Source: Myxococcales bacterium (GTDB taxonomy: Bacteria; Myxococcota; UBA727; VGSZ01). From it: a stretch of DNA of 64,000 nt. Numbering within the stretch: the first letter of the stretch is position 1; every line of letters starts with the position of its first letter. Where the stretch lies: the NCBI GenBank assembly GCA_023248635.1, contig JAHFED010000002.1:41723-105722 (forward strand), written 5' to 3'. Shown here one piece after another: positions 12,290-15,200 of the stretch. Under the pieces are notes generated by a model. It worked only from the letters and a program-made list of their open reading frames with translations. It was not told the DNA's origin and searched no databases. Both the position numbers and the translations under genes were made by a program.

Positions 12290-15200
12290 TCAGCGCCAGT
12301 AGAATTCACCGAGGCCTTTCGCGACTTTATAGGTATTTCCAACGGGAGTGCCAACCTGTTGTCCTGGCGAAAACTTCAAAAAGGAACCGCGGATTGATTT
12401 TCCAATGGTGGGCCGAGCGGCGCCAAGGTCTCGAGCAGGGATCCCCTCGAATTCATGCCTGAACTCGGGAGACGGCGGCTCGTCCGTCAGCTCTGCCTCC
12501 TGAACACCTCCTCCGACCGCAAACACTCTTGTCGTTGAGGCATATACGTCGACGCCAAAATGATCCGCCAAGCGCTGGGGCAGATCTGAGCTGCCGACCC
12601 AGCACGCCGACAGAAAGATGGGTTTGTCTGCCTCAAACCCGTTATCTGGCCGCGAGATCGCCGACACCACGCTGTCGAAACTCATCTTTCGATAAAGAAG
12701 ACCACCTTGTCCTGGCGGCTGAAAGTCGCCTTTCCTATCCCGAAATCCCAGATAACCGTGCCCACTCGTTCCGAGCACACCATGAGTGGCAATGGTGTTG
12801 AAGTTGCTCGCAGGCAGGTCCATTGGCTTGCCGTCAGCGCCGTAAAAGGCGTCATCGTTAGGCCAAGCCCAAATCTCAAGGGCGGTCTCCCCCGTCGGAT
12901 CGATGTGGCTCACCGGATCGTTGCCGGCGTAGAGGTAGGCGTTGCGGGTGAAAGTGCCCGCGGGGTCGGGGGCGAGGAAGCGGCCCAGCGAGGGGTCGTA
13001 GTCCCGGGCGCCGAGGCGGACCAAGCCCGTCGAGGGATCGTGCAGCCCGCCGGCGAAGCCAAAGGGTTGGAAGCCGGGGTTTGTGTCTTCGAGGATGAGC
13101 CCCCACGCATCGTAGCGCCGGCGCTGGACGATCTCGCCGGTGGCGGCGTCGATGACCAGGCGCACGTCGCCGCGGTAATCGAAGACGATGCGATAGCTGC
13201 CGTCAGGGGTGAGGAGCACGTCAGGAGTGAACCACTGGGTCCCATAGACGAAGCGCTGCACCACGGCGTCGTTGTCGTCGAGCAGCGCCGTCGGCCGCAG
13301 CCCGTTGCGATAGAGCAGCCCGCGTTGGCGCACGCCGTTTTCGTCTTCGGCGACGACGCGGTTGTGGCCGTCGATGGCCTGCTCGACGAGGGTGCCGTCG
13401 GGGCGCAGCAGGGAGCGCAGGTTGCCAAGGGCGTCGTAGCGCAGGGCCAGCTCACCCGCCGCTGAGGTCATGACGGCCACTTGATCGCGCCCGTCGTAGG
13501 CGAAGGCGCGGGCGCCTGAGGTGACGATGCGGCCGCGCGCATCGAAGGTGGCCTCGCTGGTGACCCCATCCCGCGTCGTCGAGACCCGGTTCCCGCGCCC
13601 GTCGTAGACCGAGCGCTCGCGTTCGATGCCGTCTTCGGACACGGCGATGAGCTGCCCGTAGACGTCGTACTCGTATTCGAGCTCCCGCTCGTCGAGGCCG
13701 CCCGCTCCGTCGGCGGCGCGCTCGGTGATGGCGACCACGCGCCCGAGCCGATCCGTCGTCAGCTCCTGCTCGAAGACGAGGTCGCCCGAGACCAAGGCGC
13801 GCGCGCTGACCGTCTCGCCGAAGCCGTTGTGGGTCCACTCGTTGGTCACGACGCCCAGGGTCGTCGAGGTGACGAGCCCGGTATCCGGATCCCGCACGAG
13901 CACCAGATCGCCGGCCGAGACCAGGTCGCCTTCGTCGTCGTAGTCGTAGGCGATGGTCTGGTCCTCGATGGTCTCGCTCACGATCTCCGCGTGCTTGGAG
14001 TAGCTCACGTCGATGGCGCCGGTGAGCGCGCCGCTCCACTCCTGGTGGGTCGGCAGCGAGCCGTCGTAGTCGTAGCTCAGCGTGATTCCCGAGGGATCGA
14101 TGACGCTGTCGAGGCGGCCCGCGTCGACGTCGTAGCTGAAACTGCGGGTGCCAAATTCGTCGTTCAGGGTGCTCAAGCGGTGGGCGGCGTCGTAGCCGAT
14201 GAGCAGCTCGCCTCCTCCCGACCACTCGGCGCGCACGATGGCCCCCAGGTTGTCGAGCACCAGCACGTCGCGGCCCACGTACCCCGGGATCGCGGGGAGC
14301 TCGGAGACCAACTCCGCGCTGTCGACGTCGACGTGCATCCCGTAGCGCGCGCCGTCGGCCATCCGCATCTCAAGCCCGTGGCTGTCGCTCGCATGACCGA
14401 AGGTCATCGTCTCTTCGCCCCGCGTCGTCGATGTGATGCGCCCGCGCGCGTCGTAGCTGTAGGCAGTGATGACACCGCTGGGATCCCGCGCGGCAACCAA
14501 CTGGTCGTCGGCGTCCCAGGTCAGGGCCAGCACGCGCTCATCTCCGGGCGGGCCGATGGCGACCTCGGTGATCCGGTCGTCGTCGTCGTAGGCGTAGCGG
14601 ATCGGATGGAGACCGGGGCTGTCGACGCCGATGATGCGGTCGCGGCTGTCGTGGTGGGTCACGTAGGCCCGTCCCGAGGGCGTAACGAGGGTGCTGGTGG
14701 CAGCGGCAAAGTCGAGGGTCTGGCGGTAGACCCGGCCGTCGTAGTCCCCCGTGGTCGTGAGGGTTTCGACGGAGAAGGGGTCCTGGGGATCGCTGAGGGT
14801 GACCTCCTCCGCGAGATGAACTCGGGTCTCGGTGCCGCTCGGGCGCCGCAGGATCAGCTCGCTCAAGCGTTCGACGTCGGCGCCGAAGCGGGGGTCGTTG
14901 CCGTATTCGTAGTCGACGACGCTGCCGTCGCCGTATTCGACGCGGGTGCCGGTGGCGAGGGGCCGCTGGGCATCGCCATCGTGGCCGCGCTTGGTCACGG
15001 TGACGACGCCGTCGGCGCCGGTGTGGCGCTGGAGCACGTTGCCCGTCGCCATCTGCTCGATGTCGAGGGCAACAACGCGACCCGCGCTGTCGCTCATGGT
15101 GACGCGGCGGCCCTGGGGCGTGTCCTCGGCGGTGAGCGTGAGGGGGTTGTCGTCGGGGTTGACGACGGAGGCGAGGTGTCCGGCGTCGTCGTAGCCGATG

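Follow-up and report, generated by a model that had tools for sequence, protein, structure and literature searches.

The window analysed here, 64 kb of contig JAHFED010000002.1 from a Myxococcales bacterium (assembly GCA_023248635.1, positions 41,723 to 105,722), carries on its reverse strand a large Rhs/YD gene whose C-terminal tip is our subject (coordinates in Table 1). Judged by its domains and N-terminus, the gene encodes a lipoprotein of the teneurin-like protein (TLP) subclass of Rhs/YD polymorphic toxins. The mechanical open reading frame (ORF) is 12290..19504 (-), a 2404-codon frame reaching a TTG at 19504. The ATG at 19321 is probably the true start, yielding MGRRFLPRFIALTLILSGC with an LSGC lipobox. 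In Pfam the protein matches fibronectin-III (fn3, three domains), TTR_TEN1-4, TEN_NHL, TEN_YD-shell and RHS_repeat, the last (PF05593) in 7 stretches (E 3e-25), while the NCBIfam matches are YD_repeat_2x, TIGR01643 and Rhs_assc_core (TIGR03696, aa 2070-2144 of 2343). The TTR and NHL teneurin modules lie upstream of the shell, and the FN-plug was not separately identified among them. The closest Rhs-core relative shares 41% identity over most of the queried core.

The bipartite motif DPxG-X18-DPxG marks the cleavage site of a bacterial TLP, and mutating a nearby conserved arginine lowered the autoproteolysis of that protein (Raoelijaona et al. 2026, PMC13018210). The same study describes TLP C-terminal domains (CTDs) as cleaved, encapsulated and polymorphic, and the TLPs of Myxococcota as predicted lipoproteins of the Sec/signal peptidase II (SPII) route. 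The window protein has the same TTR, NHL, YD shell and Rhs core cleavage motif; its CTD is likewise polymorphic, and its predicted SPII lipoprotein signal is what is typically seen in Myxococcota. Its core ends in ...YAGNDPVSHIDPTGE, and the motif stretch, RDYDPSLGRFLAPDPAGTFTRNAYLYAGNDPVSHIDPTGE, keeps DPxG-X18-DPxG intact. The window CTD is larger, at 21 kDa, than the published average of ~15 kDa.

A first-pass annotation, made from the letters alone, had described a ~197-aa tip after the core end, with an HG segment and an SAC segment about 58 residues further on. The tip and both segments are there; the tip is 199 aa counting the leading Glu (21.4 kDa for the 198 residues after it), and 60 residues separate His36 from Cys96, its single cysteine. 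The annotation had also seen that the tip is less GC-rich than the YD body and had discounted this as weak evidence of a swapped cassette, because the total GC of the convergent neighbour ettA is also just 0.62. Total GC falls from ~0.69 to 0.57 across the core/tip junction, and the signal becomes strong once it is measured as GC content at third codon positions (GC3). The tip has a GC3 of 0.588, against 0.875 in the Rhs body, 0.842 in ettA, which thus has native composition, and 0.801 in a ClpB-like gene on the other side. In 199 control windows of 199 codons drawn from five confident genes, GC3 averaged 0.838 (standard deviation 0.049, minimum 0.714), which places the tip ~5 standard deviations away. 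Read in 20-codon steps, GC3 holds at 0.90-0.95 through the DPVSHIDPTG codons and then runs at 0.4-0.8 to the stop codon; the final 100 codons of ettA are again at 0.90-0.95. The low-GC3 island is therefore exactly the tip, with the conserved core end as its left edge and the stop codon as its right edge. The conserved core end is the usual recombination point for Rhs tips. This exact coincidence of the GC3 drop with the core/tip junction marks the tip as a foreign, recently imported cassette. An assembly chimera is an unlikely source of the island, because two junctions 600 bp apart would be needed; native high-GC3 sequence lies on both sides within 600 bp.

At the distal end of the cassette the Rhs TGA touches the ettA TAG, as the annotation had read, and with this 0-bp spacer to a convergent gene a 3' immunity gene behind the TLP is impossible. 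A 90-aa antisense frame (12529-12801, +) had been given as the only ORF inside the tip. In fact six further mechanical ORFs, of 49-252 aa, overlap it. Two of the tip-overlapping ORFs were checked and look unlike coding sequence: their GC3, 0.48 and 0.46, is the lowest of their three codon positions, while real genes in this genome have a GC3 of 0.80-0.92. In almost all TLPs a gene follows immediately downstream, and the shell alone failed to protect E. coli from three chimeric payloads (PMC13018210). Because nearly all bacterial TLPs have such a gene and the window TLP has none, the window locus is a genuine exception.

The 0-bp spacer also means that each of the two convergent genes must terminate inside the other. 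A terminator-like hairpin at 12238-12257 (-) lies inside ettA, 33-52 nt beyond the Rhs stop, and another at 12714-12730 (+) lies within the tip and would serve ettA. The convergent region holds five terminator-like sites where 1.5 are expected.

The tip matched nothing in Pfam, NCBIfam or the PDB sequences, nothing by tblastn against plasmids, and gave 0 matches in a word-indexed search of 5.8 billion clusters. An exhaustive phmmer search of 1.84 billion representative proteins returned two relatives only (E 1.4e-8 and 8.2e-8). A profile search recovered just these two, P0001 and P0002, which with the window tip make up family A; genome and metagenome contigs, when scanned, yielded no family A match. 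Both relatives are stand-alone proteins (234 and 301 aa) encoded on high-GC contigs, with probably disordered N-terminal regions and no second domain. At 34-37% identity they retain His36-Gly37, Cys96, Gly99 and a C-terminal GxTYxVxxGxGxFxW motif, all of them among the 39 invariant positions of the three-sequence alignment.

Neither stand-alone homologue (P0002, L001 4235-5140; P0001, L002 1697-2401) has a signal peptide. Both begin with a long polar stretch, probably disordered and in P0002 rich in Ser, Asn and Thr, which suggests export by a non-Sec route. The GC3 of the P0002 gene, 0.89, matches its own contig, so that the domain is native there and not a recent import.

More distant relatives sit on other Rhs proteins. 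When the three-sequence family A profile was searched against the six-frame ORFs of 64 loci encoding Rhs-core relatives, it picked up a Porticoccaceae Rhs tip at E 0.003. Inspection of 44 Rhs tips and further searches then delimited family B, found on Rhs proteins of Porticoccaceae, Aquimonas, Lujinxingia and a Polyangiaceae metagenome-assembled genome (MAG), with two E. coli sequences added; family B excepted, the tips of 43 other Rhs loci are unrelated to the window tip. Family B has the layout strand-H(G), helix, strand-C-x-x-G, helix (F/L)AxxLAxxL, strand V-x-A and C-terminal aromatic strand, and its only invariant residues are the His, the Cys and the Gly three after the Cys. By hhalign, families A and B match in a stretch of 52-62 columns around the Cys with a probability of 94.4-94.6% (E 7e-8 to 9e-8), and the full alignment pairs the His strands and the last strand as well. 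On the strength of this profile match we place the window tip in the family B superfamily, as a divergent member. The His and Cys singled out by the first-pass annotation are invariant in 12 of 12 sequences (three of family A, nine of family B).

Window tip and family B alike follow directly after an Rhs core and share the strand-helix order around His and Cys and the C-x-x-G. They differ in several respects: (i) the two are too far apart in sequence identity for HMMER, which gives the window tip E 5.5 with the family B profile; (ii) His and Cys are 37-53 residues apart in family B and 60 in the window tip; (iii) the window family has an extra C-terminal hairpin, GxTYxVxxGxGxFxW, and an N-terminal NDxAF..DGKP motif; and (iv) the E. 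coli member of family B is delivered by a type VI secretion system (T6SS), whereas the window protein is a lipoprotein TLP. A scan of the collection for family B re-found already known loci only, and the tip of L021 returned nothing in the word-indexed protein search. In E. coli O157:H7, hundreds of genomes carry an uncharacterised Rhs tip of the family B type.

Several family B loci hold displaced copies. In L021 (1-5560), L033 (5222-15635) and L047 (204-4442), a full or partial Rhs gene is followed by one to three orphan C-terminal fragments with differing His-Cys or other tips, each with an exported Sel1-like ORF of its own behind it, the classic displaced-tip organisation and unlike that of the window locus. 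On an E. coli plasmid (L159, CP088525.1), positions 4800-5500 hold a frameshifted, stop-interrupted orphan of a second E. coli family B tip. It reads ..VFTIGGHG...VWLFSCNTGKG.. and has a Sel1-like ORF and an Rhs fragment for neighbours; the annotation covers no more than 54 aa of it, called a hypothetical protein.

Most family B tips whose downstream DNA was inspected have what the window tip does not. Behind those of L021, L033, L047 and E. coli lies an immunity-sized ORF whose N-terminus is a signal, lipoprotein or membrane-anchor sequence. Exported Sel1-like immunity candidates adjoin the tips in Porticoccaceae, Aquimonas and E. coli; in the Polyangiaceae MAG the tip is followed by a membrane-anchored candidate whose type is not established, and the Lujinxingia locus, at a contig end, has no downstream ORF listed. 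The likeness to Sel1 ranges from weak to clear (mutual phmmer matches, matches to a bona fide Sel1 protein, Pfam scores below threshold), and the Prokaryotic Genome Annotation Pipeline names the downstream gene in E. coli 'sel1 repeat family protein'. The export signals on these candidates point to the envelope or periplasm as the ancestral site of action. We infer from this that the superfamily of families A and B may act there, an argument that leans on other T6SS effector-immunity pairs with periplasmic immunity proteins.

The annotated sel1 coding sequence of L160 (E. coli Xuzhou21, NC_017906.1 264765-277939), at 6597-7148, passes over an in-frame Met at 6531, 3 nt past the O157:H7 Rhs stop, that gives a classical signal peptide, MKVFTFLLIIMVCLYNFGVRA. 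Because the upstream Met adds this signal peptide, the annotated protein is probably truncated at its N-terminus and the immunity protein probably periplasmic.

There are at least two possibilities for the absence of an immunity gene beside the window tip. In one, the tip is an ordinary interbacterial toxin, its immunity is encoded elsewhere, and the missing 3' gene is an accident of insertion beside ettA. The adjoining candidates in Porticoccaceae, Aquimonas, E. coli and Polyangiaceae, the gene that follows almost all TLPs (PMC13018210) and the frequency of orphan tip/immunity arrays in related loci all favour such a displaced gene, and our view covers 64 kb of the genome. But no ORF in the window resembles the family B immunity candidates or the ORF downstream of P0001 (127 aa, exported, of unknown type), and stand-alone P0002 manages with no immunity-sized gene, an acyl-CoA dehydrogenase beginning 39 bp 3' of it. 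We regard this explanation as a serious one that falls somewhat short of probable. In the other, the tip would make up, with its two stand-alone relatives, a separate offshoot of a superfamily resembling the cysteine protease domain (CPD) of MARTX toxins; this offshoot would need no immunity, and the window TLP would deliver it against prey or eukaryotic grazers, not kin. MARTX CPD is activated by inositol hexakisphosphate (InsP6). Immunity would be unneeded if the tip were inert until it met a factor found only in the target, or if its substrate were absent from the producer. The candidates adjoining the tips of relatives argue against a family-wide absence of self-toxicity, and we consider such an offshoot unlikely.

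The nearest family detectable for the tip is peptidase family C80, the clan-CD cysteine protease domain of MARTX and large clostridial toxins; the likeness, seen in profile comparison, is remote and does not demonstrate membership. The first-pass annotation had read the His...Cys arrangement as that of clan CD. The arrangement is present, in that ..NTIATHG.. and ..PIFLSAC.. place first the His and then the Cys behind a hydrophobic strand, a pattern kept in all relatives; no curated clan-CD model matches, however. For the comparison we aligned six C80 sequences (V. vulnificus RtxA, V. nigripulchritudo, Proteus mirabilis, Burkholderia thailandensis, Mitsuaria sp. and TcsL), taking their catalytic His and Cys to be those given in the literature on the MARTX CPD. 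Against this alignment hhalign gave P 0.017 for family B (7 sequences), P 0.0045 for families A and B together (10 sequences) and P 6.2e-4 for family B with the two E. coli sequences added (9 sequences; probability 28%, 71 columns). In these profile runs His fell on His and Cys on Cys, with the helix between them matched, over 66-71 columns. Family A alone, or family B against the single V. vulnificus sequence, aligned in the Cys region only, Cys on Cys. When the C80 alignment was shuffled in blocks of columns, none of 300 trials with the 10-sequence profile equalled the observed score; with the 9-sequence profile 0 of 150 trials did so at block 8 and 2 of 150 at block 15, so that 598 of the 600 shuffled controls stayed below it. 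The observed scores were 25-30, those of reversed alignments 11-13.

The tip and C80 share the order His then Cys, the HG after the first strand, the one helix between and the helix and strand after the Cys. Low-confidence AlphaFold2 models of the tip likewise place strands (28-35 and 91-93) that end just before His36 and Cys96, with helices after them. Published I-TASSER threading has already likened the E. coli relative in family B to CPD, in silico. Against these likenesses, ~45 N-terminal residues of C80 (strand-helix-strand-strand before the His strand) have no counterpart in the tip, which, if it belongs to clan CD, would be a truncated version. C80 domains process a larger toxin, whereas the window tip is the only payload, and nothing in the tip suggests InsP6 binding. 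We infer the fold rather than assign it, because the C80 link is sub-significant, the Pfam models are silent and the structure predictions are of low confidence.

Two described toxin domains sit, as the tip does, on Rhs toxins. Tox-Caspase is a caspase-like domain with H and C at the C-terminus of RHS toxins and a proposed toxin (Zhang et al. 2012, PMC3482391). As a category it fits the window tip, the comparison being by description only; its reported partners are Imm36 and Imm57, so it is neither Sel1-like in its immunity nor partner-less. A tblastn search of plasmids with human caspase-3 (used as a probe only) found no match, and no usable clan-CD sequence emerged when the fetched loci were screened by regular expression for motifs of the CHAT type.

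Tox-HDC, described in the same work, is an alpha/beta domain on RHS toxins with H, D/N and C ending successive strands; it typically lacks immunity genes and is thought to be aimed at eukaryotes (PMC3482391). It raises the possibility that the tip is a Rossmannoid His/(Asp)/Cys thiol enzyme outside clan CD, such as a Tox-HDC-like transglutaminase, deamidase or acyltransferase that modifies its target. The setting on Rhs proteins, the His before the Cys and the usual want of an immunity gene would all suit, and there are likenesses in detail. In the two Tox-HDC examples compared (the APSE-3 YD-repeat toxin and a Coxiella plasmid Rhs protein) a strand is followed by GHG and another by C-x-G-(S/R)-(S/N)-D, close to C-W-V-G-S-S-D in the tip, and an Asp or Asn lies ~10-15 residues past the His in the window tip and in about half of family B. 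That site, however, holds another residue in two family B members and a gap in three, and it is not alignable in P0001 and P0002; in Tox-HDC, moreover, His and Cys are ~80-95 residues apart, not 60. The Tox-HDC model PF15656 matches the APSE-3 toxin (E 2e-11) but neither the tip nor family B. Against an alignment of the two HDC sequences, hhalign gave P 0.17-0.42 for family A, family B and both together. Family B, alone or with family A, had its Cys strand laid on the HDC His strand, out of register, and of two runs with family A alone one was out of register and the other paired 13 columns, His on His. A scan of the collection for Tox-HDC found nothing. Identity with Tox-HDC was rejected on this profile evidence (no PF15656 match; hhalign non-significant and mostly out of register), and we think a thiol enzyme of this broader kind rather unlikely.

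The PPPDE, LRAT, sortase, L,D-transpeptidase and alpha/beta-hydrolase folds were set aside only by motif and secondary structure as known from the family signatures, because the Cys of the tip follows a strand and precedes x-x-G and a helix, and the His comes earlier. Two other Rhs tips among the fetched loci (L041 149-6604 and L043 9938-11149) have a His...N(N/D)C-x-x-F layout (..NNCKTFASEMV.. and ..VNDCHNDLERAF..). In sequence this resembles the permuted papain-like thiol enzymes of the PPPDE/LRAT type, which would be another His-before-Cys solution on this scaffold.

We favour, with a confidence somewhat better than even, a reading in which the tip is a toxic thiol hydrolase, most probably a peptidase, carried on a TLP scaffold and imported without an adjacent immunity gene. 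The protein would be exported via Sec/SPII and displayed on the cell surface, its FN3/TTR/NHL/YD-shell scaffold enclosing the C-terminal payload. The aspartyl autoprotease of the scaffold (DPAG-X18-DPTG) would cut after DPTG(E) and free the payload, which, by analogy with BiTLP, would remain within the YD shell. The payload would be a small alpha/beta domain with a His36/Cys96 dyad at the ends of its hydrophobic strands. On contact with a target the tip would be released, at or in the target cell, and work as a thiol hydrolase in which Cys96 is the nucleophile and His36 the base. The cassette would have arrived, or survived, without an adjoining immunity gene.

A number of results weigh against this reading. 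PF11713, CHAT and Peptidase_C14 gave no match at E<=1 on the tip or at E<=10 on family B, although the same PF11713 model gives 189 bits on V. vulnificus RtxA, and the NCBIfam C80 model did not reach even E=1 on either. Family A alone aligned with C80 at P 0.47, with the Cys in register, and the hhalign probabilities for C80, 8-28%, are under the level at which HH-suite matches are usually trusted. Only ~30 residues precede the His strand in the tip, against ~75 in C80. AlphaFold2 reached a pLDDT of 39.0 on the single sequence and 43.6 on the three-sequence alignment, and because both models are of low confidence, Foldseek was uninformative: against the PDB it gave no match below E 0.2, chiefly glycerol kinases and Argonautes, which we dismissed as noise. 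The tip departs from its homologues by a 32-residue insertion and several indels. Finally, a periplasm-acting effector without immunity would be expected to harm siblings.

Some of these points would suit a non-functional or decaying passenger, a foreign fragment on the Rhs core of a scaffold that serves for adhesion and needs no immunity. The un-ameliorated foreign composition implies a recent event, and the insertion and indels, the very low confidence of the predicted structure and the absent immunity gene are all in keeping with decay. Yet the frame runs uninterrupted over 199 codons and stops without intruding on ettA, each of the 39 positions invariant in the three sequences is kept at 34-37% identity, and the autoprotease motif is intact. 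We hold decay to be distinctly unlikely.

The first-pass annotation had also allowed that the tip might be a processing protease instead of a toxin, which would release its own protein in the manner of the MARTX CPD. It is the autoprocessing C80 domain in particular that the tip remotely resembles, and most Tox-Caspase domains are releasing peptidases (Zhang et al. 2012, PMC3482391). But the tip domain has no cargo next to it, neither in the TLP nor in the stand-alone homologues, where it is the only globular domain; the Rhs core, with its own autoprotease motif, already supplies release; and the immunity candidates of family B imply toxicity. Self-processing is, in our judgement, very improbable. 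Because the domain is the sole one in its stand-alone relatives and family B has immunity candidates, we regard the tip itself as the predicted effector in the toxic thiol hydrolase reading, rather than as a releasing protease.

Caspase-like H/C domains at the ends of RHS toxins (Tox-Caspase) and TLPs with polymorphic payloads are already established. New here are a three-member sequence family, a sharp sign of recent import and the lack of an adjoining immunity gene. Bacterial TLPs have been characterised experimentally only recently and their payloads are largely unannotated; this payload family is known from three members in ~15 billion predicted proteins. The locus ties it to the uncharacterised Rhs tip of E. 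coli O157:H7 and is a natural example of a toxin cassette that lacks an immunity gene beside it. Should the His-Cys domain prove to be an active CPD-like protease, the superfamily would represent a new class of envelope- or host-directed cysteine-protease effectors, which would reach their targets through both T6SS and surface TLPs. Should the immunity-free offshoot considered above be real, the TLP would be an immunity-free exception to the TLP rule, a surface lipoprotein that delivers a cysteine protease.

Table 1. Features of the TLP gene, its tip and neighbouring genes (window positions)
Feature	Positions	Strand	Basis or remark
Teneurin-like Rhs/YD toxin gene	12290..19321	-	2343 aa from ATG; Pfam and NCBIfam domains
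Predicted SPII signal peptide with lipobox (MGRRFLPRFIALTLILSG/C)	19265..19321	-	predicted; read from translation
Teneurin TTR-like domain, aa 390-474	17900..18154	-	PF25020, E 6e-23
Teneurin NHL beta-propeller, aa 915-1247	15581..16579	-	PF25021, E 6.3e-24
YD shell, C-terminal part, aa 1706-2120 (best Pfam stretch)	12962..14206	-	PF25023, E 9e-22
Rhs core autoprotease motif DPAG-X18-DPTG, aa 2119-2144; left tip junction	12890..12967	-	sequence, TIGR03696
C-terminal tip, family A His-Cys domain, aa 2145-2343	12293..12889	-	sequence
His36 codon (NTIATHGVLG), predicted general base	12782..12784	-	invariant in 3/3 family A and 9/9 family B
Cys96 codon (..FLSAC.., within KPIFLSACWVGSS), predicted nucleophile	12602..12604	-	invariant in 12/12 sequences; sole tip Cys
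Abutting stop codons, 0-bp spacer	12287..12292		sequence; ettA TAG 12287-12289 (+), Rhs TGA 12290-12292 (-)
ettA (energy-dependent translational throttle)	10565..12289	+	TIGR03719, 926.8 bits vs cut-off 806.75; likely Met start 10622
ClpB/ClpA/ClpV-like double-AAA+ ATPase, directly upstream of TLP	19458-22334	-	NCBIfam, below cut-off
1510-aa protein with 13 MopE-type putative metal-binding repeats	23941-28473	-	PF11617, E 8e-64
746-aa protein with two LamG/concanavalin-like domains, just upstream of ettA	8150-10390	+	domain matches
tmRNA gene, tag peptide ANDNVELALAA	39953-40314	-	

The ClpB-like ATPase stays under every NCBIfam equivalog cut-off (ClpB 673 bits against 1232; TssH 560 against 885) and has an N-terminal extension of ~170 aa. 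MopE-type repeats, as found in the 1510-aa protein, are common in Myxococcota, and they would fit the closest EttA relative, which comes from a Myxococcales MAG (69% identity). The 746-aa LamG protein shows weak similarity to the TafC fimbrial protein and to a clostridial neurotoxin receptor-binding domain.

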